NCBI GenBank assembly: GCA_963796275.1
Contig: CAWCKY010000004.1
Span: forward strand, 1,120,001 to 1,184,000
Length of the DNA stretch: 64,000 nt
Source of the DNA: an uncultured Acidobacteriota bacterium
GTDB lineage: Bacteria; Acidobacteriota; Blastocatellia; RBC074
Direction: 5' to 3'
In this document: positions 23,576 through 61,381 of the stretch, piece after piece
Numbering within the stretch: position 1 is the first letter of the stretch
How the letters are laid out: every line of letters begins with the position of its first letter
Notes under the pieces: generated by a model
The model's input: only the letters and a program-made list of their open reading frames with translations
What the model was told of the DNA's origin: nothing
The model's database searches: none
Position numbers and translations under genes: made by a program

Positions 23576-24808
23576 ATGAAAACATTTCTGGTGCTCCTTG
23601 CGCTTCTGATCATCGGTTGTGCGTCGGTAAAGCTATACGATGCCAAAATGACCCCTGCATTGTCGGAAGGGGAATCGACCGAATCGACGGGTTACCGAAA
23701 TCCGCGCTCCCTCAGCAAGTATGTCGATCGCCTGATGGGCGATGGCCGGAACTGGAGGCAGCATGGCGTATATGTCGAGACCCTTGACGGGTCGGAACCC
23801 GTGGCGAAACTGAACGAGGATGCCGAATTCAATCCCGCCTCGGTCACCAAATTGGCGACCACTCTGGCCGCACTCGATAAGCTCGGACGTAATCATCGTT
23901 TCCGCACCGAATTCCGAACGGACGGCGAAATCGATCGAAAAAGCGGTGAACTGGTTGGCGATCTCCTGCTGCTCAGCGGAGGCGATCCGTCTTTTTCGAC
24001 CGCTGATGCGCAGCGAGTCGGTGATGTTTTGCGAAATATGGGTATTAGGAGCGTGAATGGCTCTCTGAAAGTTATCGGCGCATTCACCTGCAATGAAAAT
24101 TCGAACACCGAAGTATCGGCCGGCGTCTTACAACGGCAGATGAAAATTCCGTTCCGCAAGGCGGCAACATACGAGGGATTCGAGAAATACGTCCCGCGCG
24201 GACGGCTCCTGTTGACCATCGAATCCGATTCGCTGTTGGAGATCGTGAGATATCTGAACGCGCACAGCGTTAATTCCATGGCAGATATGATCGGAATGCA
24301 TATCGGCGGGCCGGGAGGCGTCCAGAAATTCCTGATCAATAGTATCGGGTTGCCGAGCGATGCGGTCTATATATCGCATGCCTCAGGGTTGGAAGTTAAC
24401 CGGATGACCCCGAAGGATACGGTCAACTTGTTACGCGCATTGATGCGATGGCTCTCCAATAATAATCTCGATCCATCGGCAGTTATGGCGGTTGCCGGGA
24501 TTGATGCGGGTACCCTGCGCGGCCGTTTTGGCGGGCAATTCGCCGGCAGCGTGGTGGCGAAAACAGGGACCTTGTTCAGCACTGATCGCGGTGTCGCGGC
24601 GCTCGCGGGTATCCTATACACGCGCGACCGGGGACCGCTGCTGTTCGCCGTATACGATATGGCAGAGGGAAAGCAAGTTCCTCAACTGCGTCGGGTGCAA
24701 GACGAATTTCTCAGGGAGTTGATACTCGAATGTGGCGGCCCGGATCCACAAGCCCGACGCAAAACAGGAAATCACCGACTAGAGAGCAAGTTCACGACTG
24801 CGCTATGA
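23576..24808 (+). CDS. dacB: D-Ala-D-Ala carboxypeptidase/endopeptidase (peptidase S13, PBP4-like), lipoprotein
   Basis: SxxK (ASVTK), SxN (HSVN), KTG (KTGTL), GGDPS; lipobox IIGC after the ATG at 23576. Confidence 0.85.
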   Translation: MKTFLVLLALLIIGCASVKLYDAKMTPALSEGESTESTGYRNPRSLSKYVDRLMGDGRNWRQHGVYVETLDGSEPVAKLNEDAEFNPASVTKLATTLAALDKLGRNHRFRTEFRTDGEIDRKSGELVGDLLLLSGGDPSFSTADAQRVGDVLRNMGIRSVNGSLKVIGAFTCNENSNTEVSAGVLQRQMKIPFRKAATYEGFEKYVPRGRLLLTIESDSLLEIVRYLNAHSVNSMADMIGMHIGGPGGVQKFLINSIGLPSDAVYISHASGLEVNRMTPKDTVNLLRALMRWLSNNNLDPSAVMAVAGIDAGTLRGRFGGQFAGSVVAKTGTLFSTDRGVAALAGILYTRDRGPLLFAVYDMAEGKQVPQLRRVQDEFLRELILECGGPDPQARRKTGNHRLESKFTTAL

Positions 24809-24890
24809 TAATGGATAATGGATAATGGATGAATTCGTATACACCGTGGAACCAGGCTAAACGAATTATCCATTATCCATTATCCATATT
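24806..24890. repeat. Heptamer inverted repeat (GATAATG)n...(CATTATC)n between convergent genes
   Basis: Seen directly. Confidence 0.85.
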
Positions 24891-27965: not shown

Positions 27966-28053
27966 TTGATAATGGATAATTGATAATTCGTATAGACTGT
28001 GGCAACAATTTATACGAATTATCAATTATCCATTATCAATTATCCATTATTTT
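27960..28053. repeat. Heptamer inverted repeat (GATAATT/G)n...(AATTATC)n
   Basis: Seen directly. Confidence 0.85.
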
Positions 28054-36331: not shown

Positions 36332-38444
36332 ATGTTTTTAAAACAAGCTATTAATTTAGGTGGCCGCGAGTTGACGATCGAAACCGGCCGAATTGCCAAA
36401 CAGGCAGATGGCGCGGTGCTCGTCAGACAGGGTGAAACCGTTGTACTGATCACCGCCGTTTCCGAACGCGAGCCCAAGGTGGGCTATAGTTTCTTCCCGC
36501 TGACCGTCGATTACCGGGAATATGGCTACGCCGCGGGACGAATTCCAGGCGGATACTTCAAGCGGGAAGGACGGCCGACCGAAAGAGAGATTTTGACGTC
36601 ACGATTGACCGATCGCCCCATCCGCCCGCTATTTCCCGAAGGGTACCAGCACGAGACGCAGATCATAGCGATGGTCATCTCCGCCGATGACGAAAACGAC
36701 CCGGATGTTCTTGCGATCACCGGGGCGTCGGCCGCTCTCTACCTCTCGGATATTCCCTTCCATAATCCGATCGCCGGCGTACGCGTCGGTCTGGTTGAAG
36801 GCAAATATGTCGTAAATCCGACCTATGAACAGCAACGCAATTCGCTGCTCAATCTTATCGTCGCCGGAAGCGAGGAAGCGATAGTGATGGTAGAGGCGGG
36901 CGCGAAGGAGGTCAGCGAACAGGTCATGCTCGAGGCGTTGATGTTCGCCCACGGCGAGATCAAAAAACTCTGCCAGCTGCAGCGCTCGATGAACGAGGCG
37001 CTCGAAGTCCGGAAGCGCGAGTTTACGCCGAAACAGATCAATGAAGAGCTCTTTAAAGATTTGGAAGAGAGGTTCTCCGCCGAACTGCGTGAGGCCCTCG
37101 ATGTCTCGAACAAGCCGAAGATCGAGAGCTATCAGATGATCGACGACCTCAAGAAACGAGCCGTCGAAACCTACCCCGATGAGGAAGCGGAGAAACGCGC
37201 CGAGGCGGGGGACCTCTTCGACCGGTTGAAAGAGCGCATCTTCCGCGATGATATTTTGAACAATCGCCGGCGCCCCGATGGCCGCAGGTTCTCGGAGATC
37301 CGTCCGATCTCGATCGAGGCCGGCTGGCTGCCGCGTACGCACGGTTCGGCTCTATTCACGCGCGGCGAGACGCAGGCCATGGTCACTGTTACTCTCGGCA
37401 CATCGCAGGACGTCCAGTATATCGACAGTCTGGAGAGCGGCGAATACAAACGCCGGTTCATGCTCGAACTACAATTTTCCGCCCTTCTCCGTCGGCGAAA
37501 CCGGACGGATGGGCAGTCCCGGCCGGCGCGAGATCGGCCACGGTGCGCTCGCGCAGCGCGCGCTCGAGGGCGTGACTCCGCACGAGGACGAATGGCCTTA
37601 TACAGTGCGCATCGTCTCTGACATCACCGAATCGAACGGATCGTCTTCGATGGCGACCGTCTGCGGCGGATCGCTCGCACTGATGGATGCCGGTGTTCCG
37701 ATCAGATCGGCTGTCGCCGGGGTCGCGATGGGCCTGGTTATGGAGGAAAAAAAGTTCGCCGTCCTGACCGACATCGCGGGAGCAGAAGATCACTACGGTG
37801 ACATGGACTTCAAGGTCGCCGGCACGCGCGACGGCATCACCGCCTTGCAGATGGACATCAAGGTCACGGGGTTGAACTCGCAGATTCTCGCCGATGCGCT
37901 GGAACAGGCGCGTAAAGGGCGCATCTACATCCTGGATAAAATGGAAGAGATCATCAGGGAGCCGCGTCCGGAGATCAGCAAATATGCGCCGCGCATCCTG
38001 ACCCTGCAAATCCCGGTCGACAAGATTCGCGACGTCATCGGGCCAGGCGGCAAGGTCATCCGGGGCATACAGGAAAAGACCGGGGCGAAAATCGACGTAT
38101 CTGATGATGGCAAGATCGCGATAGCGACGCCGAGCGGTGAAGCCGCCGACCTCGCGCTGCAGATGATTCGCGACCTGACGGCCGAGGCCGAAATCGGCAA
38201 GTCATATCTCGGTACGGTATCTCGGATCGTCGATTTCGGCGCTTTCGTCGAGATATTCCCGGGCGTCGACGGATTGCTGCATGTCTCCGAGATCGCGGAC
38301 TACCGCGTGCGCGATGTTCGGGACGAATTGAAAGAAGGCCAGCAGATACTCGTCAAATGTATTGGCGTAGAGGGCAACAAAATCCGCCTCAGCCGGAGAG
38401 CCGTGCTGAAAGAGGAAAAGAAGGCCAGGGGCGGCAATCAATGA
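36332..38444 (+). CDS. pnp: Polyribonucleotide nucleotidyltransferase, split by a +1 frameshift near 37467
   Basis: [24 protein letters not shown] in ORF 36332-37621; [30 protein letters not shown] and S1 domains in ORF 37278-38444; follows rpsO. Confidence 0.95.
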
Positions 38445-43537: not shown

Positions 43538-45211
43538 TTATCCGATCTTGATGCCGATGCTCTCCAGAAACTTGGTCGGTTTTTCTCCGCCGATCAGGGC
43601 GAAGACGAAGTCGTTCTTGAATCGCTCGGTCTCTTTCGCAGTCTCGGCATCGCGCGAACGTGCGCTCATCAAGACAACTTCGCTGGGAGTGATCTCTTTT
43701 ATCGTTTGGCCGAAGTATGCTTTTATCTTTCCTTCGTCGATGCATTCATAAACCAGCATCTTATTGGCGAGCTTTACGTCGCCCTTGAAATTGCTGCGGA
43801 TGAGAAGGGAAACTATGTTGTCTCGCCAGCCGGCAATTCGCGAACCGTCCTCGGAACGATATGCCGTAAGATCAACCGCCGCCTCGACCGCGGAGTTGCC
43901 GGCTCCGACGACCAGGATGTGTTTGCCCGAAAAATCATTGGGATCGACCAGCTTGTATTTCACTTTCTCTTCATCGTAAGGCGGGCGCGGCCGCGGGATG
44001 TATCGCGATCCGCATTGCTGGCAGAATTTGTCATCTCCCAGGCGGCCGGCGCCGCACATCTCGCAGAAATCGGGAAAGACAAACCCGTGCGTGGTGATCG
44101 TGACCTTGATATTTTCACCGGCGACATTCAAACGCTGCGGGGTTCCGCGGTTGCCGATCGACAGTACAACGCGGCGCACCTTGTACTGCATCTTCAGTTT
44201 CGATTTATACTGCTCGGTCATGACCACAAAGCCATCGCCTTCGCGTTTGACGTCTTTGCAGCTCTCGTTTTCATTGATGACGAGCCCGTTCGATTTCACG
44301 GTCGACATCCACGACCCGATCATTTCTTCTTTGATTCCGCCCGCCCCATCCAGCTGGATCCCGCCATTCACCAGCTGTTCGGCGGGATTGAAGTAGACGA
44401 ATTTACCGGCCTGATAGGTCTGCTGAATTGTGGCGGCGATCTGATCCTGCTCGATGGCGATGTATTTCAGCCCGCGCTGGTTAGCGAGCGCGGTGGCAGA
44501 CAGCCCGGCCGGTCCGATGCCGATAATCGCCACGTCATATTCGCCGTTCCCGTTTTTGCCGGCTTGTTGCAGATCCTGGTAGACATATTCGATCACAGCC
44601 CCACCCTCGTTGATCGCGTTCTTTATCAAAGGCACGCCCGAGACATCGCCGATCAGATAGATTCCCGGAATATTCGTCATGAAACTCTGATCGCGCTTGG
44701 GAACCTTTCGCAGCGGGATATTTTTCGAGGTGTTGACGAGGATACACGACTTCGGGACGGTCGGACATTCGACCTCACAGCCGGTGTCCTCCATACACTG
44801 CTCGACCGCTACCGTGATGGCCTTGCCGTTGACCATTGCGAGTACGTCGTGCGGGCAGGCATCGACGCAGGCGTGACATCCAATGCAGGTTCCGATATTG
44901 ATCACCGGATGAGGATACGACGGCCCCTTGGGGTCGAGCATCGCTCTGGGCAATTCTCCGGAAACGGAACCCGGCTCTTCCTCCGGCACGACCTTCTCTT
45001 CCGCCTCAGCCATCGCCTCGAGCACACGGCTGCGGCGTTTTTTCGTGTCTATCAGGACGAGGGCTATCACGAGGAACATGGTGAGCAGTGTCAGGCTGCC
45101 CCAGCCGACCCACGGTACGGCGCCGTAACTGACCGGAAGTGAAGTGGCGAAAGCAACAACCAGTAAGAGAACGAGGAAAAATAGTGTGATAATCAGGTGT
45201 GATCGCTTCAT
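43538..45211 (-). CDS. Membrane-anchored 4Fe-4S / FAD-NAD(P)H oxidoreductase (TrxB/YpdA-like fold)
   Basis: Two N-terminal hydrophobic helices; CIGCHACVDACP and CMEDTGCEVECP; FAD motif IIGIGPAG; NAD(P) motif VVGAGNSA; inserted CEMC...CQQC. Confidence 0.85.
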   Translation of the reverse strand: MKRSHLIITLFFLVLLLVVAFATSLPVSYGAVPWVGWGSLTLLTMFLVIALVLIDTKKRRSRVLEAMAEAEEKVVPEEEPGSVSGELPRAMLDPKGPSYPHPVINIGTCIGCHACVDACPHDVLAMVNGKAITVAVEQCMEDTGCEVECPTVPKSCILVNTSKNIPLRKVPKRDQSFMTNIPGIYLIGDVSGVPLIKNAINEGGAVIEYVYQDLQQAGKNGNGEYDVAIIGIGPAGLSATALANQRGLKYIAIEQDQIAATIQQTYQAGKFVYFNPAEQLVNGGIQLDGAGGIKEEMIGSWMSTVKSNGLVINENESCKDVKREGDGFVVMTEQYKSKLKMQYKVRRVVLSIGNRGTPQRLNVAGENIKVTITTHGFVFPDFCEMCGAGRLGDDKFCQQCGSRYIPRPRPPYDEEKVKYKLVDPNDFSGKHILVVGAGNSAVEAAVDLTAYRSEDGSRIAGWRDNIVSLLIRSNFKGDVKLANKMLVYECIDEGKIKAYFGQTIKEITPSEVVLMSARSRDAETAKETERFKNDFVFALIGGEKPTKFLESIGIKIG

Positions 45212-45228
45212 ATCGTGCCTTTTCTCGT

Positions 45229-46371
45229 TTACGCCCTCTTGCGAATATCACTCCGCAACCTGCCATTGACCGCATCGATCACTACTTCCGCATTCGTCAC
45301 ACGTTGGAATGTATCGAAAGCGGCGTGCTCGATCGCCGCAATCAATGCTGAATGCAAACCCCGGGCGCCGGTTCCGCGTTTCAAGCTGCGCTCGACGATG
45401 TAGCTAATGGCAGCATCGGTAACGGTCAGATGCAAACCTTCTACTTTGAATTCGCGAACGAACTGCGGCAGGACATTGTCATGCAGTATTCGCCGCAGCG
45501 TCTCAACGGGCAACGGATGGAACCTGACGATGCGCGCGAAGCGGCCCATAAGTTCAGGCAGAAATCCGTATCGTTGAAACATCTCGATCTCTTCCAGGAC
45601 CGGCGACTGGTCGCTTTCCCTGATGCCATCTCGGTCGCGAAAGCCGATCAACTTCGACTCATTCTTGATCAGGTCGTCCATCCCGGAAAATGTCCCGCAA
45701 GCGATGAAGGGAATGTCGCGCGTCGAAAGCGGCGCGCGTTGACTGTAAGCCGAATAGCCGTAATCCATCGGAACCATAATCTCCGTCCCCTCAACGATCT
45801 TGAGCAACTCGCGCTGCACGCCGTATCCCGAAACGTCTTTCGTGGTCCCCTCTCCGGCAAACCGCGAGTTGCTGGTCGACGAGGCAAGCTTGTCGAATTC
45901 GTCGAGGCAGACTATCCCGCACGAGGCTATGAGCAGATTCCCCTCGGCGGCATAAACGAGCCGCGTCAGAATCGTACTGACGTCATCACCGATGTATCCG
46001 CTCTCGGTGAAGCTCGTAATATCTACTATCACCGTGGGCAACTGGAATATCTGCTGGAAAAGCAGTTCGACTAAAAACGTTTTCCCACAACCCGTCGGCC
46101 CGGCCATCAAAGTGTTCTGCTTCGGCGGCAGTTGCCGGCGCGTGTCATTGTTCACATGCAGCCGCTTGAGACGCCGGATGTGCCGATAGGCCATCAACGA
46201 CAAGGCGCGGCGCGGCTCTTCCTGACCTTTGTAGCCCAGTTGCTCCAACCGCTCGGCGATCTCCGGTGGCGCAATTACGGGCAGGACATGGATGAATTCG
46301 CGAAAACTCTCCCGCTCGCGCTCAGAAGTATCGAAAAAGTCCGGATTGTCGTCTTCAGATGAGTAGTTCAT
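45229..46371 (-). CDS. ClpX-like AAA+ ATPase lacking the N-terminal zinc-binding domain
   Basis: GPTGCGKT, pore loop TESGYIG, LDEFDK, DVSGYGVQRELLK, LIGF, PELMGRF, TGARGL. Confidence 0.88.
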   Translation of the reverse strand: MNYSSEDDNPDFFDTSERERESFREFIHVLPVIAPPEIAERLEQLGYKGQEEPRRALSLMAYRHIRRLKRLHVNNDTRRQLPPKQNTLMAGPTGCGKTFLVELLFQQIFQLPTVIVDITSFTESGYIGDDVSTILTRLVYAAEGNLLIASCGIVCLDEFDKLASSTSNSRFAGEGTTKDVSGYGVQRELLKIVEGTEIMVPMDYGYSAYSQRAPLSTRDIPFIACGTFSGMDDLIKNESKLIGFRDRDGIRESDQSPVLEEIEMFQRYGFLPELMGRFARIVRFHPLPVETLRRILHDNVLPQFVREFKVEGLHLTVTDAAISYIVERSLKRGTGARGLHSALIAAIEHAAFDTFQRVTNAEVVIDAVNGRLRSDIRKRA

Positions 46372-46373
46372 CG

Positions 46374-46506
46374 GAATTATGGATAATAATCATAATGGGC
46401 GTAGCGAGTACCCATTATCAGCCATGAATTGAAACTATTCATTATCAATTATCAATTCTCAATTATCCATTATCAACTCTCGATTATCCATTATCAATTC
46501 TCAATT
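46374..46506. repeat. Heptamer tandem repeat (CAATTAT/CCATTAT)n
   Basis: About nine copies at 46436-46506 with a short inverse arm near 46375-46397. Confidence 0.8.
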
Positions 46507-47987
46507 CTTCCCATCCTTCTGATGCTAGCCCGCAAATCTTTCTCCTCGCCGTGTTGTGAATGACAAGAAATGCAGAGTGGGCCGGTGTCCCTGGCGCTCC
46601 CCACAAACCTCAGCGCTCGCTCGGCAAAACCCAGATTAGCATTAAGGGCCTGAGTATCGGCCTGTGTCGCGCGCGTCCCGTGACAGCTGGCGCACGACTC
46701 GCGCACTCCCTGCTTCACGGCATCTCCTTCAAAGCCGGCCGTATGGCAATCGGTGCAAATATTTCGGCCTTGCTGGCGGCCTCCCGTATGGACCAGATGG
46801 AACTGCTCCTTCAGACTGAATTGCGAGGTCGAACCGGGCAAGTCTTTGCGCGACCACTCCGCCTGCGAGATACCGCTCCAGGTCCATTGTCCGTTGTTGA
46901 CCGGATAGCCAAATGTTCCGCCGTGCGGCGTCTTGAGCGGCTTGTTCGTTTCGGGCGATATGAATCCGCTTCCGTCACGATGGCAACCCGTGCATGCGAT
47001 ATTTGCAACGAAGGCCGGCCTGAATTCCTGCCCGTGATGTTCACTATGGCAGTATGTGCAGGTCAATCCAACTTTCAGATGAATGTCGGAAACATCGGAC
47101 TTAAATGCCGTCGTCTGGTGACAGGTAGCGCAATTCTGGTTCAGCGAAGAGGTGAGCCCATGGCATTGCGTACAGGAATTGCCATTTGCTGTCTTCGCTA
47201 TCGCTGGCATCATGGATAGATCGGCGCGCAGATGCGGGTTCGACAGCGTCCCCGGCGAATATACGTTCTTGAAGGCGAATGTCGCGCTCACGGCGAACAC
47301 AGTCACTATCAGCGTCCCCCAGACGAAGAGCGATCCGGGCCAGGGACGCAGCAGATCGAGCGTCGGAAACCAGTTGAATTGGGCTTTGCCCAATCCCGCT
47401 TTCCCCGAAGGTCTGAGAGGCGAATCGCTCGTTAATTTGCCCGCCTCGCGCATACGCTTATCCCAGAAGACCTTGAGAGACTGCGCCTCGCCCGGGTTGA
47501 GCAGGCCCGTGAGCATTCCCGTTCCGGCTAGACGCCGCGTCCCTTTCGGCGTGGTCTTCTCGCGCTGCAATTTCGCAAGCTGGCTGAGGTCGAGCCTGAT
47601 CGTCCGCCTGTCCTCATTCGGAATCTGAAGCTGGCTCAGTGTCGAAGACTCAATGGGCAAAGGTTTGACGCTCATCTCCACGTCGATCTGCAAACCCTCG
47701 CTCGTATATTTCGGGTATAGAAAAAATGGCCCCACCTGAATCAAATCGCCATCCGCCAGCGGCGTCTGTTCTATCAACTCGCCATTGAGCAAAGTGCCGT
47801 TGGCTTCCGACAGATTGAATATCCAATAATCGCCATTTATCTCTTTAACACCCGCATGCGTCCGGGACACGGTCGGATGATTGAGCGCCAAGTCGTTGCC
47901 GGTCAACCGGCCGATAGTTAAGCCCTCGCTCTCGATCTCTACCGGATCTAGGTTGATGTCTTTTCGATTGACGAGAAAATTGCTCAT
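46494..47987 (-). CDS. FHA domain - TM helix - heptaheme cytochrome c
   Basis: FHA motifs IGR, VSRTHA, NGT; one TM helix; seven CxxCH motifs (CTQCH, CATCH, CTYCH, CTGCH, CTDCH, CASCH, CISCH). Confidence 0.9.
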   Translation of the reverse strand: MSNFLVNRKDINLDPVEIESEGLTIGRLTGNDLALNHPTVSRTHAGVKEINGDYWIFNLSEANGTLLNGELIEQTPLADGDLIQVGPFFLYPKYTSEGLQIDVEMSVKPLPIESSTLSQLQIPNEDRRTIRLDLSQLAKLQREKTTPKGTRRLAGTGMLTGLLNPGEAQSLKVFWDKRMREAGKLTSDSPLRPSGKAGLGKAQFNWFPTLDLLRPWPGSLFVWGTLIVTVFAVSATFAFKNVYSPGTLSNPHLRADLSMMPAIAKTANGNSCTQCHGLTSSLNQNCATCHQTTAFKSDVSDIHLKVGLTCTYCHSEHHGQEFRPAFVANIACTGCHRDGSGFISPETNKPLKTPHGGTFGYPVNNGQWTWSGISQAEWSRKDLPGSTSQFSLKEQFHLVHTGGRQQGRNICTDCHTAGFEGDAVKQGVRESCASCHGTRATQADTQALNANLGFAERALRFVGSARDTGPLCISCHSQHGEEKDLRASIRRMGRIEN

Positions 47988-47990
47988 ATA

Positions 47991-50453
47991 TCAATTCGCC
48001 AAGAAATAGATGACCTGTATTAAATGAACGATCATCAAGGCCAGCATTATCGATGTGAAAACTACGTGCGGCGCAAGCCAAAGTTTAAGCGACTGATGCA
48101 GATAGATCAGCGCATCGACGCGCCGCATGGTCGCAGCCTTCTCGATCGCGCTGAAAAGGTTCCCTCGTTCGTAGGGCGAGAGGGTCTCGACTTCCTGCTC
48201 GAACTTCTGATTGGTTTCCAAGATCAATTGGTCGAGCGTCTCACGCTTAAAGTATTGGCGAAAGAGGAAGCCGAACGAGAAGAGACGCGGAAGCACCTGT
48301 TGTTGTATGAATACCCGCGCGTCCGGAGTTGCCGCAGCCATCGCCTCGCCCAGTTCGCTACTCAACTCATCGCGGCGCTTCATCAAATCTTCGATCAGCA
48401 GCGGCTGTCCCTCGATCTTGGTCAGCAACCTCGGAGCGAAATAGTAGAGCAGAATGCCCAGCAGACCGGTCAACACAACCAGATCGAACGAGATCATGAG
48501 CGAAGTCGTCAGTACCCCTCCTGATTCGGTTCCCCCGTGGAGCAGGAGAGTGATGCCTCCGATCACACCCAGGTAGCCGTGCGATAGCAGCCAGTAACGC
48601 AGCGGTCCGGCCCGCCGTTTGTAAATCTGCCTCCGAACCGGATATGCCATGACTCCGGCGACCCCGATTAAACCAACGATACCCGTCAGCCAGCGCATAT
48701 CGAACCACGTGCCGATGAACGGGGACTCGAGACCATAGTTCACCAAACCAAGCGCCGTCAGCGCGGTCATGATCAGCGTCAGCGCGATCCCGACGACGTG
48801 CATAACGCGCTTCCCGAAATCCTTGTGCGAGCTATGCTTGAGGATCGCGTGCGTCGAATCCCTGAAGATTACGCCTTCGATATTTTTTATCTCGGCGAAA
48901 TAGACGCGCGGATCGACGCGGAGCAATGACCCGGTCGGGCAATTTTCCTCACAGCTGTAAGCCTGTCGCTTCGCTCCCAGCGGATTGATCGCCTTGCCCG
49001 CGCAGAGATTGCACTTAACGGCCAGGAGATCTTCGGTCTGCTCTACCGCGGGCGGCACCTTCTCGGGCGCGATCCCAAACCACTTTTGCCAGCGGGTCTT
49101 CCCGTTCACGCCATTGGTGCGCGCCGGAACCATTGAGATGGCATTATACGGACATTGGGTGGCGCAATCGGCACAGCCGATACAGGTGGCCGGATCTATG
49201 TCGACCTGTCCATCGGAGAAACGGCCGATGGAGCCAGTCGGGCAACCGGTCAGACACTCCGGATCTTTGCAATGCAAACAGACGGCGGGTGCCAGGAGGC
49301 TCTGGAACGCGGCCTTCTGCTTGAGCGCGAATGGCCGTGTGATGTGTATCCCCTCACGCAGCAGACGGGATTGCCCATGAATCTCGTGACACGCCAGAGA
49401 ACAATTGCCGCAGCGGATGCACAAATCCATATCCATCACGAGCAGATTGGTGGCATCGACCAATCCCGTCTCGATCAAGTCTTCCTGCGATTTCGCGATC
49501 GGCAGCGGCTGTCTCCTCTGCGAGATGTCGCGCGGTGCGATGTTCGAAAAAGCGAGCAATAAGGTCTCGCGCAGTTCCGGAGACTGCCGCAGCTTCGAGA
49601 TCGAAATCTCCAGGACCTCGGTGCGGCCGAGCAGCGTACAGGTTTGATCCCATTCGCCTGAATGCGTGATCGCTTCGATTCCGAAGCAATGCGACGGCCC
49701 GACGTAAGTTGATCCCGCCTTGACGTTCCAGTTGCGCGTCTCACCATCCGTTATCTCTTCGGATGTCGAGATATTTGTGAGCTGCATCGGCGGCGTGAGG
49801 CGGGCCCATCCGGATTTGATCAGATAGAGCCTTCGAATCGACTCGCCGGCGCGGAAAAGGACGTGATTTTTCGCATAGACGCGGAATTGCGAAATAGCCT
49901 CGAGTTGAGAGATCGCCTCATCGCTCAGTTGCGTGGTGGACTTGATATCCTGCACCGTTGCGGAACGGCCGTTGCGGCGGTAAGCCGAATCGAGGGCTTC
50001 GCCGAACTTTGGGAGCTTGCGGAGCAATCGCAAAGCCGGCCTTTGCAACTCCAACACCTGTACCGGCTGGTCGGCGGGCGCCATCACCGTCGCCGCACGC
50101 GGGACCCCCGCCAGAACCGACATCTCGCCGAACTGCATTCCCACCGGAATCTCCGAGACTTTCGTCATCCTTCCGGCATCGCGGATCATCACATCCGCTT
50201 TGCCCGAGACAACTATGTAAAAACTGTTGCCGCCCCAATCCCCTTCCCGCACTATCTCCTCACCCGGACCGTAGGTCAGCAAACGCACATAGGGACCTAC
50301 TTTCTTCCCATTGTAATTGCGGCCGTATACGATTACCTCCAGATCGAGCTCGTACTCATAATGTCCTTCAAGCTTTGCCGTCAAATCGGCTATTGCTCCT
50401 ACGCTTTCAATCGCTGCTAACACCTCGCGATGCTTGATGGTTTCTTGTGGCAT
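47991..50453 (-). CDS. Two cNMP-binding domains + 4x[4Fe-4S] + four-TM putative di-heme-b domain
   Basis: FGEMSVLAGVPRAATV; CIRCGNCSLAC, CLHCKDPECLTGCP, CIGCADCATQCP, KCNLC...CEENCP; two TM H-x13-H pairs. Confidence 0.88.
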   Translation of the reverse strand: MPQETIKHREVLAAIESVGAIADLTAKLEGHYEYELDLEVIVYGRNYNGKKVGPYVRLLTYGPGEEIVREGDWGGNSFYIVVSGKADVMIRDAGRMTKVSEIPVGMQFGEMSVLAGVPRAATVMAPADQPVQVLELQRPALRLLRKLPKFGEALDSAYRRNGRSATVQDIKSTTQLSDEAISQLEAISQFRVYAKNHVLFRAGESIRRLYLIKSGWARLTPPMQLTNISTSEEITDGETRNWNVKAGSTYVGPSHCFGIEAITHSGEWDQTCTLLGRTEVLEISISKLRQSPELRETLLLAFSNIAPRDISQRRQPLPIAKSQEDLIETGLVDATNLLVMDMDLCIRCGNCSLACHEIHGQSRLLREGIHITRPFALKQKAAFQSLLAPAVCLHCKDPECLTGCPTGSIGRFSDGQVDIDPATCIGCADCATQCPYNAISMVPARTNGVNGKTRWQKWFGIAPEKVPPAVEQTEDLLAVKCNLCAGKAINPLGAKRQAYSCEENCPTGSLLRVDPRVYFAEIKNIEGVIFRDSTHAILKHSSHKDFGKRVMHVVGIALTLIMTALTALGLVNYGLESPFIGTWFDMRWLTGIVGLIGVAGVMAYPVRRQIYKRRAGPLRYWLLSHGYLGVIGGITLLLHGGTESGGVLTTSLMISFDLVVLTGLLGILLYYFAPRLLTKIEGQPLLIEDLMKRRDELSSELGEAMAAATPDARVFIQQQVLPRLFSFGFLFRQYFKRETLDQLILETNQKFEQEVETLSPYERGNLFSAIEKAATMRRVDALIYLHQSLKLWLAPHVVFTSIMLALMIVHLIQVIYFLAN

Positions 50454-50727
50454 AGTATTTTCAGTGTTTCAATATAAAAACAATATTTAATCCGTTTTTT
50501 TAGGATTTCTAAGGGAGAACGACCGATGATGATAGCTCATTTTTAGTGCCTCGAGGGGAGTTAGTCAATGGATATTTCGGGCTTTTTGATTTCCATTAGC
50601 GGATATCATAACCCGAATTTTCATAAACATCCTTTATATAGACTAATCTTATACAAGAGGCGGTGAGGGATTTAATTCAATTGTGTAAATGGGGCTAACA
50701 ACAAAGGGCACACGTGCCAAAGGGGGC

Positions 50728-50833
50728 ATTTATCATTGTTTAGTTGTCATTTTTACATCTTACATTTGTCACTGACTCGCACGATGGGCAACGAAATGAC
50801 AACTGTAAAATGATAAATGTAAAATGATAAATT
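50728..50833. repeat. Heptamer inverted repeat (TCATTTT-like)...(AAATGAT/AAATGTA)n
   Basis: Seen directly. Confidence 0.7.
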
Positions 50834-50884
50834 CCAGAATAACCACTATTCTATATTATTAATCTTTTTGCTTCCCGCCTCTGA

Positions 50885-61312: not shown

Positions 61313-61381
61313 TTGATAGTTGATAGTTCGAATAGATTGTGGCCACAAATTATTCGAACTATCAATTATCAACTATCAATT
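61310..61381. repeat. Heptamer inverted repeat (TAGTTGA)n...(TCAACTA)n between convergent genes
   Basis: Seen directly. Confidence 0.85.

Follow-up and report, generated by a model that had tools for sequence, protein, structure and literature searches.

A conserved Acidobacteriota locus predicted to encode an inner-membrane electron-transfer module with cyclic-nucleotide-binding and FHA domains

Among the described relatives of the locus analysed here are the PCC3 and PCC4 porin-cytochrome clusters, which are themselves predictions. In the part of their paper that deals with these clusters, He et al. (2017, PMC5566968) predicted two b hemes from the motif set of the inner membrane protein, suggested that it is a quinone-active cytochrome b, and drew both clusters as electron-uptake conduits with a quinone link in iron oxidisers. 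We have examined a related set of genes in a 64,000-nucleotide stretch of DNA (the window) from an uncultured Blastocatellia member of the Acidobacteriota. The host is a soil bacterium.

The four genes, here called A to D, are co-directional on the minus strand, and the intergenic gaps in the ORF listing are 3, 122 and 17 bp; a first-pass annotation had described this same close spacing, and its coordinates and gaps are identical to ours. The domain sets it gave the four genes are also borne out by Pfam, NCBIfam and motif counts, except for the number of membrane helices in A. The features of the locus are as follows.

50454-50884, minus strand: 431-bp AT-rich region ahead of A
50794-50832, minus strand: 14-bp tandem repeat upstream of A (consensus match only)
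50539-50568, minus strand: promoter-like site upstream of A (consensus match only)
47991-50453, minus strand: gene A (820 aa), a pair of cNMP-binding domains followed by a four-cluster Fe-S domain and a membrane domain of five helices (ORF, Pfam, NCBIfam)
49974-50327, minus strand: A cNMP-binding domain 1 (about residues 43-160), canonical phosphate-binding cassette FGE...PRAAT
49554-49901, minus strand: A cNMP-binding-like domain 2 (about residues 185-300), its pocket degenerate and lacking the Arg
48894-49442, minus strand: A cytoplasmic DmsB/NrfC-type domain, 16 Cys in four groups, for four [4Fe-4S] clusters
47994-48818, minus strand: A five-helix membrane domain, predicted to hold two b hemes (hydropathy, AlphaFold2)
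46494-47987, minus strand: gene B (497 aa), FHA domain, conserved linker, one membrane helix and periplasmic heptaheme c domain
47703-47987, minus strand: B cytoplasmic FHA domain (Pfam FHA, 55.3 bits)
47268-47342, minus strand: B membrane helix
46497-47255, minus strand: B periplasmic heptaheme c domain (Pfam Cytochrom_c3_2 and Cytochrome_C7)
46441-46506, no strand: three 21-bp tandem units of GATAAT heptamers, running from the end of B into the B-C spacer
45229-46371, minus strand: gene C (380 aa), ClpX paralogue that lacks the N-terminal zinc-binding domain
43538-45211, minus strand: gene D (557 aa; ORF, Pfam Fer4, Pyr_redox_3 and Pyr_redox_2)
45038-45211, minus strand: D two N-terminal hydrophobic helices
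44732-44914, minus strand: D 2x[4Fe-4S] ferredoxin domain
43541-44554, minus strand: D thioredoxin-reductase-like FAD/NAD(P) flavoprotein
44003-44074, minus strand: D zinc-ribbon insert in the flavoprotein

The flanking genes (PNPase, a PD40 protein, a TonB-type barrel, M16 peptidases and CpsB) are unrelated to these four, and the heptamer array of the B-C spacer occurs in 82 clusters genome-wide and is thus a dispersed repeat rather than an operon-specific element. Co-occurrence in other genomes had been named as a check, and a neighbourhood survey finds that, of the 81 loci in which at least 1.7 kb of sequence follows A, 80 have B as the next gene downstream. D is present in 43 and missing from 24 of the 67 loci with at least 5.5 kb (two loci duplicate two others); thus a flavoprotein encoded in cis is not obligatory. 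The A-B-D order is kept across one bacterial class, and also in forms with split genes that are about 30% identical. Twenty more loci, taken from other families of Acidobacteriota solely because the membrane domain matched, all have a gene with at least four CxxCH motifs beside the membrane domain (20/20), and they include a cNMP plus Fe-S gene in 12 cases, a D-like flavoprotein in eight and an FHA domain in seven.

Three fusions tie the parts together further. The Fe-S and membrane domains joined in the window's A are split into adjacent genes in loci L113-L115, L119, L134-L137 and L140. The FHA-heme c and ferredoxin-flavoprotein parts occupy one ORF in seven Blastocatellia loci and in the distant locus L114, with exactly one helix separating the heme part from the ferredoxin part, which is what the topology calls for. 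Finally, in four loci a 791-aa ORF beside a free membrane protein joins the flavoprotein to both cNMP domains and the Fe-S domain (Pfam check on L134). Since gene order, three independent fusions and invariant ligands (below) all point the same way, the four cofactor modules belong together, and the locus is a real, coherent system of a predicted, uncharacterised kind. The same three lines of evidence bear out the earlier statement that there is no molybdo- or hydrogenase-type catalytic subunit. Could the four genes be mere neighbours with unrelated functions? The unrelated flanks and the absence of C and of D from many loci would fit, but the A-B adjacency, the class-wide A-B-D order with its split forms, and the fusions already contradict this idea, and we give it next to no probability. 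Contact prediction for A and B scored 0.32 against 0.00 for the best control, which counts as weak support; among solved complexes 58 of 80 reached the mark, and among mismatched pairs 2 of 110, and scores of 0.60 or less at the mark came from only 7 of the 80 solved complexes and from both passing mismatches. Across these runs, made with our own alignments, at least 60% of contacts agreed and the partner pLDDT was at least 63.

Gene C is a lineage-restricted accessory. Its product scores 238 and 204 bits against the NCBIfam ClpX models, under their cut-offs of 359 and 371, and in alignment with the genome's canonical ClpX it has no zinc-binding domain, has GYIG for GYVG, has lost the RKH loop and has kept IGF. 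It was found in 7 of 67 loci, and orthologues occur in 15 of 41 related genomes, 11 of the 15 adjoining an A gene; the ClpX paralogue, which the first-pass annotation had listed among the four genes of the operon, is thus not core. It may be a ClpX-like unfoldase gained in one lineage, possibly for assembly or turnover.

Protein A has more than 2337 homologues in our search. Pfam cNMP_binding matches it in two stretches (76.9 bits), the first at residues 60-142, and the closest solved structures to domain 1 are the regulatory subunits of PKG and PKA. A canonical first pocket and a second one without the Arg had been noted before, and this is borne out across 97 sequences: G109 is found in 97, E110 in 96, R119 in 89 and T122 in 96, and in pocket 2 the Arg position is D in the window protein and R in only 10, with W268 in 96. 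All 16 Cys of the Fe-S domain (groups 345-355, 392-404, 424-434 and 481-505) are present in 97/97 sequences. This domain matches Fer4 families including Fer4_11 (31.3 bits, cut-off 26.2); the top NCBIfam rows of A are DsrO, ArrB, TtrB, DmsB and NrfC, each far under its cut-off, the PDB matches are ArrB-like 6cz7_B, HycB 7z0s_B and NrfC 2vpw_B, and no signal peptide precedes the domain in the sequence. In protein B, the FHA residues R27, S41 and N68 are conserved in 85, 88 and 89 of 89 sequences, the seven CxxCH motifs in 87-89, and seven further His (252, 303, 317, 355, 397, 400 and 479) in 88-89.

The binding residues of the cNMP pocket and the phospho-Thr contacts are thus conserved, and in one distant locus (L114) the module is followed after 89 nt by a class III cyclase gene; the host genome has two cyclase genes. 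The canonical pocket at the N-terminus of A and the FHA domain at that of B may gate or assemble the module in response to cNMP and phospho-Thr. The whole might instead be mainly a redox sensor, in which the chain reports the periplasmic or cytoplasmic redox state, the cNMP, FHA and ClpX-like parts transmit or execute the signal, and there is little bulk flow. Signalling domains are indeed unusually dense (two cNMP and one FHA in the window), distant loci have extra FHA and DUF4388-FHA proteins besides the cyclase gene, and the ClpX paralogue occurs mostly in this operon. However, domains of the cNMP and FHA types usually serve as inputs or adaptors, and A, B and D have no kinase, DNA-binding or cyclase domain fused to them as an output. 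In addition, the PCC3-like loci L148-L153 keep the flavoprotein, membrane protein and cytochromes with no cNMP or FHA matches, which argues for the redox chain as the function and for the signalling parts as additions to it. We regard the sensor as very improbable.

The membrane domain of A, to which four helices had been assigned, is predicted by hydropathy and an AlphaFold2 model (pLDDT 90.3; built, like our other models, without cofactors) to have five, at residues 549-575, 588-607, about 618-640, 645-674 and 789-820, with a cytoplasmic helical insert of about 110 residues (48090-48416) between helices 4 and 5. Helix 4 carries T662-G-x-x-G666. The two H-x13-H pairs reported earlier are found in helix 3 (W621-x3-H625-x13-H639) and helix 5 (W792-x3-H796-x13-H810), and their four His, whose conservation had been named as a test, are invariant in 49/49 diverse representatives down to about 23% identity. 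The charge of the loops fits the positive-inside rule, and the two helices that bear the His pairs both cross the membrane from the cytoplasm outward. We predict that His625 and His796 on the cytoplasmic side and His639 and His810 on the periplasmic side would ligate two stacked b hemes. Weak Pfam matches among 41 relatives are to DUF4405 (24; best E 2.8e-6), Ni_hydr_CYTB (14) and Ferric_reduct (8), and a purified DUF4405 protein bound heme b, according to the relevant part of a preprint (bioRxiv 10.1101/2024.03.13.584918). For the window's own A, no heme-b family in Pfam gives a match even at E<=5, PF01794 and PF14358 run against the whole genome hit other genes and not A, and profile comparisons with the local MsrQ-type ferric-reductase family and cytochrome b were null (probabilities 0.1% and 1.7%); the earlier assignment of the His pairs to a ferric-reductase/NOX-type domain thus finds no placement by profile comparison or Pfam on this protein. 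No solved structure matches in Foldseek at E<=0.001, and the VIA-align Z scores all lie below 9, the noise range for helical bundles, so the fold has no clear solved match.

A four-cluster Fe-S protein paired with a di-heme b protein is also the arrangement of NarHI and FdnHI (NarH and FdnH rows, NCBIfam and PDB), and the membrane domain might accordingly be a quinone-reactive cytochrome b like NarI, FdnI or HyaC, the module being linked to the quinone pool as an NAD(P)H:quinone oxidoreductase (D and A) or a quinol:cytochrome c oxidoreductase (A and B). The suggestion of He et al. (PMC5566968), the Ni_hydr_CYTB matches and a weak structural row for HyaC (Z 7.0, 135 residues aligned) favour this, but the HyaC match is within noise, the membrane domain always lies beside multiheme c genes (80/81 and 20/20 loci), and in the B-D fusion a single polypeptide holds the two ends of a straight chain. 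A quinone link seems to us quite unlikely.

Protein D (model pLDDT 71.6) supplies the other end of the chain. Its eight ferredoxin Cys are found in 47-48 of 48 sequences and its zinc-ribbon Cys in only 13. The nearest folds are NADPH flavoenzymes, with Bdr/YpdA 7a76 the best Foldseek match (E 5e-19), followed by TrxR-like ferredoxin-NADP reductases. Enzymes of the latter class work in either direction, and the same complex could run in reverse, from donors such as Fe(II) in the periplasm or outside the cell through B, the b hemes, Fe-S and FAD to NAD(P)+. Many paralogous loci adjoin multiheme and outer-membrane gene clusters, as would suit such uptake. On general bioenergetic grounds, however, electrons moved inward oppose the inside-negative membrane potential, and a donor able to reduce the NAD(P)+ couple at -320 mV would have to lie far lower in potential than c hemes or Fe(II) typically do, which is why we favour the outward direction. 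No proton-coupling subunit is evident among the operon proteins (Pfam, NCBIfam), and Blastocatellia are not known to oxidise iron. Reversed flow, the direction drawn for PCC3/PCC4 (PMC5566968), is in our judgement unlikely.

With moderate confidence we lean towards A, B and D forming one inner-membrane module that carries electrons from NAD(P)H out to the periplasm without going through quinones, under cNMP/FHA gating. The N-terminal helices of D would hold its FAD and ferredoxin domains at the cytoplasmic face; NAD(P)H would bind the thioredoxin-reductase-like FAD domain, and electrons would pass to D's own two-cluster ferredoxin domain, then along the four cytoplasmic [4Fe-4S] clusters of A to the five-helix domain. 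B, anchored by one helix, would receive them on seven bis-His c hemes, and the next carriers would probably be cytochromes, soluble or in the outer membrane, whose genes lie elsewhere in the genome. Among loci closely orthologous to the window operon, with A at least 59% identical, only 1 of 9 has further multiheme genes nearby, and this genome's candidate cytochrome cluster is on another contig. The module would most likely be a regulated electron outlet. Of the wire proposed in the first pass, which ran from NAD(P)H to periplasmic heme c by way of FAD, Fe-S and heme b, the association of the modules and the fit of the topology stand; the ferric-reductase/NOX placement found no support for the window protein in profile comparison or Pfam, and the ClpX paralogue is not core.

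Our literature search found no biochemical study of an A-type membrane protein and no experiment on any family member, in keeping with the earlier remark that no characterisation was known; relatives have, however, been described bioinformatically. The membrane domain of A is a motif-for-motif match to the "conserved inner membrane protein" of PCC3/PCC4, and the gene set of the window parallels both PCC4, as these are set out in the pertinent section of He et al. (PMC5566968), and the ptdC-F genes of the "ptd" cluster in the corresponding part of a 2023 preprint (bioRxiv 10.1101/2023.11.21.568154).

The four minus-strand ORFs that a first-pass annotation had described appear in the ORF listing with exactly the same coordinates and with gaps of 3, 122 and 17 bp between them. 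We call them A to D in the order of transcription:

47991-50453, minus strand: gene A, 820 aa; a pair of cNMP-binding stretches plus matches to four-cluster ferredoxin families, among which Fer4_11 exceeds its cut-off (Pfam, NCBIfam)
46494-47987, minus strand: gene B, 497 aa; an FHA domain and cytochrome c3/c7 families (Pfam, NCBIfam)
45229-46371, minus strand: gene C, 380 aa; ClpX models at 238 and 204 bits, under their cut-offs
43538-45211, minus strand: gene D, 557 aa; a ferredoxin domain, Pyr_redox_3 and Pyr_redox_2

The domain make-up that the annotation had given to these proteins agrees with Pfam and NCBIfam scans, and a script reproduced the seven CxxCH motifs of B, the 16 cysteines in four groups of A and both of the H-x13-H strings quoted for A. 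That the operon holds no molybdoenzyme or hydrogenase gene was likewise borne out by the ORFs and Pfam. It is flanked by functionally unrelated genes; B is the only ORF with at least four CxxCH motifs on its contig, and the neighbouring barrel is a TonB-type OMP_b-brl_4 protein.

The part of A upstream of its membrane domain carries well conserved sites. All 16 cysteines are kept in 97 of 97 sequences, and Fer4_11 (PF13247), which is fused to the membrane domain, scores 31.3 bits against a cut-off of 26.2, in agreement with the DmsB/NrfC type of cysteine grouping that had been claimed. The NCBIfam equivalogs for named respiratory subunits (DsrO, ArrB, TtrB, DmsB and NrfC) do not identify this Fe-S domain as one of them, since they give 42-58 bits against cut-offs of 200-450; the top NCBIfam row is DsrO (58.3 bits, cut-off 200), and the DmsB model gives 48.5 against 214. 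The cNMP-binding family (PF00027) matches at 76.9 bits over two stretches. Across the 97 sequences the first pocket is canonical and conserved and the second degenerate, as had been noted: domain 1 has the phosphate-binding cassette with its Gly-Glu and Arg-(x)-Ala/Thr, R119 being kept in 89 of 97, and is the predicted ligand site, whereas domain 2 lacks the Arg. The window's genome contains two cyclase genes as well as cytochrome c assembly genes, and at one distant locus (L114) a class III cyclase gene lies 89 nt downstream of the module.

The membrane part of A had been described as four helices with two H-x13-H pairs; the pairs are present, but the script found five hydrophobic segments, all within residues 546-820, with about 110 soluble residues between helices 4 and 5. 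An AlphaFold2 model of this domain is helical (pLDDT 90.3, pTM 0.82). It contains the motifs of the inner membrane protein of the predicted porin-cytochrome clusters (PCC), namely W621/H625/H639 on helix 3, T662-G663-L-L-G666 on helix 4 and W792/H796/H810 on helix 5. Conservation of the paired histidines had been named as a check on their role, and in an alignment of the window protein with 48 diverse representatives His625, His639, His796 and His810 are each kept in 49 of 49 sequences (W621 in 48/49, R607 in 47/49, W792 in 46/49). In our membrane-domain alignment the first Gly of the helix-4 motif is invariant and the second is present in at least 90%, the consensus being SGxxG. A search of 1.84 billion representatives returned 1005 relatives of the domain at E≤0.001, including free-standing proteins of ~275-300 aa, other cNMP and Fe-S fusions, and one protein with cytochrome c domains; over this and a later profile search the free-standing relatives span 275-330 aa.

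The likeness to ferric reductases and NOX proteins that the first-pass annotation had drawn holds for the spacing of the His pairs but does not extend to a Pfam match or to profile comparison. The domain has no Pfam family and no PDB sequence match; A itself gave no match to PF01794 at E≤0.01, nor at E≤5, and a genome scan with PF01794 finds another gene (contig C1, position 380624) and not A. The corresponding scan with PF14358 (DUF4405) also finds other genes, the window protein being under every threshold. Among 41 relatives, weak Pfam matches at E≤5 were obtained to DUF4405 (24 relatives, best E 2.8e-6), Ni_hydr_CYTB (14) and Ferric_reduct (8, best E 0.0028), the window protein giving none of them. 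Comparison of our membrane-domain alignment by hhalign with a local MsrQ-type alignment gave a probability of 0.1% (E 0.51), and with a local cytochrome b alignment 1.7%; the latter had been fetched via the DUF4405 model, and by our reading its conserved motifs look bc-type, so it does not represent DUF4405 proper. Foldseek returned nothing from the PDB at E≤0.001. A wide VIA-align search gave only Z values below 9 (best 8.9), with the designed two-heme protein 4D2 (7ah0, Z 8.3), STEAP4 (6hcy_C, Z 7.5, rmsd 4.5, 148 residues aligned, 18% identity), STEAP1 (6y9b_C, Z 7.3) and HyaC (Z 7.0) as heme-related rows; these are leads only, since they are mixed with unrelated helical rows of equal Z. 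Protein-language-model neighbours, at scores of 0.95-0.96, bear the automatic name "ferric reductase like transmembrane component". In both ligand pattern and topology the domain resembles a di-heme cytochrome b and probably works like one; membership of the ferric-reductase family is not shown by these comparisons.

Each of the seven CxxCH motifs of B is kept in 87-89 of 89 sequences, and exactly seven further histidines (252, 303, 317, 355, 397, 400 and 479) are conserved in 88-89 of 89, which is the number required for bis-His ligation. The FHA domain (PF00498, 55.3 bits) keeps G26 in 89, R27 in 85, S41 in 88 and N68 in 89 of the 89 sequences, and we take its conserved Arg, Ser and Asn to be the phospho-Thr contacts. 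Residues ~170-216 (window 47343-47702) form a strongly conserved cytoplasmic segment before the membrane helix that has no family assignment; L171, W175, R178, K184, P193, G200, K201, W206, D211, L212 and W216 are invariant in a 36-sequence alignment of B, and the segment may be a docking site for A or D.

In D, the eight cysteines of the ferredoxin domain are kept in 47-48 of 48 sequences, and the zinc ribbon is a clade-specific insert (13 of 48). The flavoprotein model is nearest to Bdr/YpdA (7a76, E 5e-19, 21% identity), followed by TrxR-like ferredoxin-NADP reductases; the ferredoxin part of the model has a pLDDT of about 30, and no reading was taken from it. Against the YpdA/Bdr family TIGR04018, D scores 117.6 bits where the cut-off is 339.9, and YpdA lacks the ferredoxin domain and the membrane helices, both of which D has. 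D carries no TrxR-type redox CxxC, since its only CxxC pairs sit in the ferredoxin domain and the zinc ribbon. Two cysteines of the flavoprotein part, C318 and C490, are kept in 46 of 48 orthologues and could be a redox pair, an extra ligand, or structural.

The ClpX paralogue C keeps the Walker A and B motifs, the GY(V/I)G pore loop (here GYIG), an IGF-type loop, the sensor-2 GARGL and the C-terminal small domain, but the N-terminal zinc-binding domain and the RKH loop of ClpX are both missing. It falls under the curated ClpX cut-offs, with 238.4 bits against 359 (NF003745) and 204.2 against 370.75 (TIGR00382), and is 35% identical to the canonical ClpX of the genome, whose gene sits on another contig. 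Orthologues of C occur in 15 of 41 related genomes, 11 of them within a few kb of an A gene; three lie away from A (in genomes G003, G027 and G029), and the remaining one is carried by a short fragment from the unpublished genome G004. We therefore regard C as an accessory protein that is specifically tied to the operon.

Several features of the surrounding DNA were also recorded. A dispersed palindromic repeat occurs at window positions 24806-24885, 27967-28045, 46441-46506 and 61358-61378, and consists of an array of (T/G)GATAAT heptamers, a spacer of ~30-40 bp that looks hairpin-forming, and an inverted array. Such arrays give 16 matches in the window where 0.15 are expected; the 9.46-Mb genome has 82 clusters, of which 34 show both orientations, and the element looks like an intergenic repeat of the REP or MITE kind. 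The spacer between B and C is filled by one copy, and GATAAT arrays there might be taken for boxes of the iron regulator Fur, a reading that is ruled out by the dispersal of the array over 82 genome clusters and three further sites in the window. Upstream of A, the AT-rich region has a 14-bp tandem repeat of 2.8 copies (AAATGACAAATGTA, window 50794-50832), which could be an operator or mere low complexity. Elsewhere in the window, polynucleotide phosphorylase is present as two overlapping plus-strand ORFs, 36332-37621 (RNase_PH, RNase_PH_C and PNPase) and 37278-38444 (RNase_PH, KH and S1), which points to a frameshift, or else to misassembly, in a gene of the essential type.

A survey of gene neighbourhoods, which the first-pass annotation had proposed as a check, shows that the genes travel together. 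All 20 loci from 18 related genomes have A and B, 16 have D and 7 have C, and two of the D-less loci end just after B. In a larger set, in which L033 and L034 duplicate L013 and L014, B directly follows A in 80 of the 81 loci with at least 1.7 kb downstream, and D and C are found in 43 and 7, respectively, of the 67 loci with at least 5.5 kb downstream. A paralogous group whose A is ~46-50% identical has A-B without D, and split forms (~30% identical) keep the order cNMP and Fe-S protein, membrane protein, FHA protein, flavoprotein. Twenty further loci from other Acidobacteriota families were chosen by their membrane-domain match alone, with the unpublished genome G086 omitted; a gene with at least four CxxCH motifs adjoins in 20 of 20. 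Twelve have a gene that combines cNMP and Fe-S domains and 2 others have Fe-S without cNMP; a D-like flavoprotein occurs in 8 and FHA in 7. The loci of other Acidobacteriota include genes for 4-, 5-, 8-, 9- and 10-heme proteins.

At the level of predicted proteins, three independent fusions tie the parts of A, B and D into one chain. First, the Fe-S and membrane domains that are joined in the window's A are encoded by adjacent genes elsewhere. Second, seven Blastocatellia loci and the distant L114 have B and D as a single ORF; the 987-aa product of L114 has two FHA domains, cytochrome c, Fer4 and Pyr_redox (Pfam). Most of these B-D fusions have a single hydrophobic helix between the last heme motif and the ferredoxin motifs (none was detected in that of locus L030, and L029 has overlapping segments), which would put the chain back in the cytoplasm. 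Third, a single ORF of ~791-794 aa at four loci combines the flavoprotein with two cNMP domains and the Fe-S domain (Pfam on L134), and it adjoins a free membrane protein and an FHA-decaheme protein. At L134 (5824-6885), and also at L135, L136 and L140, a DUF4388-FHA protein of ~300-350 aa is encoded directly upstream of this third fusion, and the decaheme protein at the same loci has two FHA domains at its C-terminus, not at its N-terminus.

Further multiheme genes are present in 37 of the 61 loci with at least 8 kb downstream; among the 9 loci that have an A with 59% or more identity to that of the window, just 1 has them. Neighbours of the D-less paralogue group encode a 4-heme and two 9-heme cytochromes, a triple HbpS-like protein, a ~690-aa CarboxypepD_reg protein and another 4-heme protein, and homologues of most of them are found in the window's genome on another contig (C3, ~474-488 kb). 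That cluster (~474,800-487,900) has a 9-heme cytochrome, adjacent 2-, 3- and 5-heme ORFs that are possibly one broken gene, and HbpS-like (801 aa), CarboxypepD_reg (684 aa) and 9-heme (1367 aa) proteins; it is homologous to one beside A-B paralogues in Pyrinomonadaceae MAGs.

More than 2337 relatives of A were found among 8000 candidates scored, the best being "cyclic nucleotide-binding domain-containing protein" entries of Blastocatellia or Acidobacteriota. All 41 related genomes, a tally in which the unpublished G004 is counted, contain some match, and the full-length ones lie mainly in the same family and class. In a sample of 201 genomes spread evenly over the phylum, full-length A at E≤1e-60 was found in 11, nearly all of the same class, and the membrane domain, sought with a profile of distant free-standing membrane proteins, was found in 46 from many families (the unpublished G086 included).

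The topology of A bears on how such a module might work. Helix 1 should run outward, since the Fe-S domain follows the cytoplasmic cNMP domains and the protein has no signal peptide, and this orientation leaves on the cytoplasmic side the Arg/Lys-rich loops, one joining helices 2 and 3 and the other following helix 4. Helices 3 and 5 would then run from inside to outside, so that the first His of each pair (His625, His796) would lie close to the cytoplasm and the second (His639, His810) close to the periplasm, a geometry that would fit a two-heme transmembrane relay between the last Fe-S cluster of A and the periplasmic hemes of B. Complex prediction for the A membrane domain with residues 165-497 of B gave a score of 0.32, against 0.00 for the best control, although scores as low as this are those of few of the passing solved complexes and of both passing mismatched pairs; the prediction runs had at least 60% of their contacts in common, with a partner pLDDT of at least 63. 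This modelling lends weak support to a contact between A and B. Electrons would flow outward from NAD(P)H, since on thermodynamic grounds inward flow to NAD(P)+ should have to climb the membrane potential as well as the redox gradient. If the outward path were ungated, reducing power and membrane potential would be lost through it, and this offers a rationale for the regulatory domains. The four-gene set is a real finding, and the wire drawn in the first-pass annotation, from NAD(P)H through FAD, Fe-S clusters and heme b to a periplasmic multiheme cytochrome c, is its best-supported reading.

That an NAD(P)H-type flavoprotein repeatedly accompanies the module speaks against the quinone link that was proposed for such clusters in 2017. 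In the predicted extracellular electron transfer (EET) clusters PCC3, PCC4 and ptd (ptdABCDEFG), the sole candidate for crossing the inner membrane is a "conserved inner membrane protein", which to our knowledge nobody has purified. The window locus and its relatives give this protein a concrete, testable context: a four-cluster Fe-S wire, an NAD(P)H flavoprotein and multiheme cytochromes with a membrane anchor are found time and again either beside it or fused to it. A further-reaching reading, which we consider possible but somewhat unlikely, is that this is the first electron-transport module switched by both a cyclic nucleotide and Ser/Thr phosphorylation, a gated, quinone-free valve from NAD(P)H directly across the inner membrane to multiheme cytochromes, and that the same core, not a quinone-linked cytochrome b, is the long-sought inner-membrane entry or exit of PCC3 and PCC4 in iron-cycling bacteria. 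If the wire model holds, electrons would pass between the pyridine-nucleotide pool and periplasmic cytochromes independently of quinones, the quinone link proposed for the PCC3, PCC4 and ptd clusters would have to be revised, and the module would be one of the rare examples in which a second messenger and phospho-proteins directly control electron flow of the respiratory type. The argument against the quinone link and the possible second-messenger gating are the parts worth following up, and the three-gene form of Blastocatellia, being compact, lends itself to expression and structure determination.

Among characterized systems, the ferric-reductase superfamily (NOX, FRE, STEAP and MsrQ) shares with A the His pairs ~13 residues apart on helices 3 and 5, and has a cytoplasmic NAD(P)H flavoprotein feeding electrons across the membrane, as would be the case here. 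Its members have six helices and a fused FNR-type domain, however, whereas the window system has five helices and a separate TrxR-fold chain, with a six-cluster Fe-S relay in between. In NarGHI/FdnGHI and DmsABC/NrfCD a four-cluster ferredoxin subunit feeds a membrane subunit, which holds di-heme b in Nar and Fdn, and A is similar in this respect; the operon, however, has no molybdopterin or other catalytic subunit, and its Fe-S part is fused to the membrane domain. The His spacing of NarI is also unlike that of A. In Hmc, Tmc and DsrMKJOP of the sulfate reducers, periplasmic multiheme c, membrane cytochrome b and cytoplasmic Fe-S proteins join two redox pools, but their subunits are of the NarI/HdrE and HdrD types, unlike those of the window, and they are without NAD(P)H flavoprotein, cNMP or FHA parts. 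DUF4405, MsrQ, PepSY-like and FezC proteins resemble A in having four central histidines on helices and a proposed role in transmembrane electron transfer, and a purified DUF4405 protein binds heme b (bioRxiv 10.1101/2024.03.13.584918); this group has six helices and flavinylated extracytosolic partners (ApbE), whereas A has five helices, the ~110-residue cytoplasmic insert, and Fe-S and heme c partners.

The closest likeness is to predicted clusters. The first-pass annotation knew of no functional characterization, and the literature searched indeed held no biochemical work on the PCC-type membrane protein, only bioinformatic descriptions; relatives had, however, already been described in this way as PCC3/PCC4 and ptd. 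The same literature held no paper that combines an FHA domain, a c-type cytochrome and extracellular electron transfer. He et al. 2017 (PMC5566968) describe in the predicted PCC3 and PCC4 a conserved five-helix protein of ~300 aa whose third and fifth helices carry W-x3-H-x13-H and whose fourth carries SGxxG, and for which two b hemes were predicted; as described there, its helix number and defining motifs match the A membrane domain exactly. In PCC4 subgroup II an Fe-S (pfam13247) gene lies upstream of the membrane protein gene, the two being one gene as annotated in an Oceanospirillum genome, and PCC4 also has further redox genes, a porin and periplasmic cytochromes of 4, 5 and 10 hemes (PMC5566968). 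The ptdABCDEFG cluster (bioRxiv 10.1101/2023.11.21.568154) reads as the same cluster as PCC4; in it, an FAD/NAD(P) oxidoreductase is named PtdC, an Fe-S protein with two clusters and cNMP binding PtdE, and a membrane protein called "ferric reductase-like" PtdF. Neither source assigns a function in its available text. As described in these sources, PCC4/ptd shares with the window an Fe-S gene beside the membrane protein, cNMP binding on the Fe-S protein, an FAD/NAD(P) oxidoreductase and multiheme c. It differs in having a porin and the 4/5/10-heme trio, where the window has no porin and a single heptaheme protein with an FHA domain and membrane anchor; the flavoprotein of the window has a membrane anchor and a ferredoxin domain of its own, and there is a ClpX paralogue besides. 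The window comes from a soil Acidobacteriota bacterium, whereas the reported PCC4/ptd hosts are marine Proteobacteria or Planctomycetes.

PCC3, of iron oxidisers such as Sideroxydans, has the same set of membrane-protein motifs, always beside multiheme cytochromes, although the PCC3 and PCC4 membrane proteins have no significant overall similarity to each other (PMC5566968). It differs in its giant extracellular and periplasmic cytochromes and large porin, and the available text of that paper mentions no Fe-S, cNMP or FHA parts for it. In a Gallionellaceae pangenome (PMC10734462) the PCC protein is still named conserved inner membrane protein. At loci L148-L153 of our set, the membrane protein stands beside cytochromes of 13-51 heme motifs, with a D-like ferredoxin-flavoprotein in four, one of them truncated. 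The largest of these cytochromes, each a single ORF beside the membrane protein, are at L149 (6035-9793, minus strand, 51 CxxCH), L151 (12493-15258, 37) and L153 (7288-9591, 33), and resemble the giant ones reported for PCC3. Since cluster look-ups and profile searches for distant relatives gave just unnamed or Acidobacteriota records, the tie to the named PCC4 and Ptd proteins rests on motifs and architecture. Judged, as regards the novelty of its FHA and cNMP parts, from the main-text descriptions of these clusters, the window system is a variant of the predicted PCC4/ptd (and PCC3) inner-membrane core that is compact and fused and bears FHA and ClpX additions.
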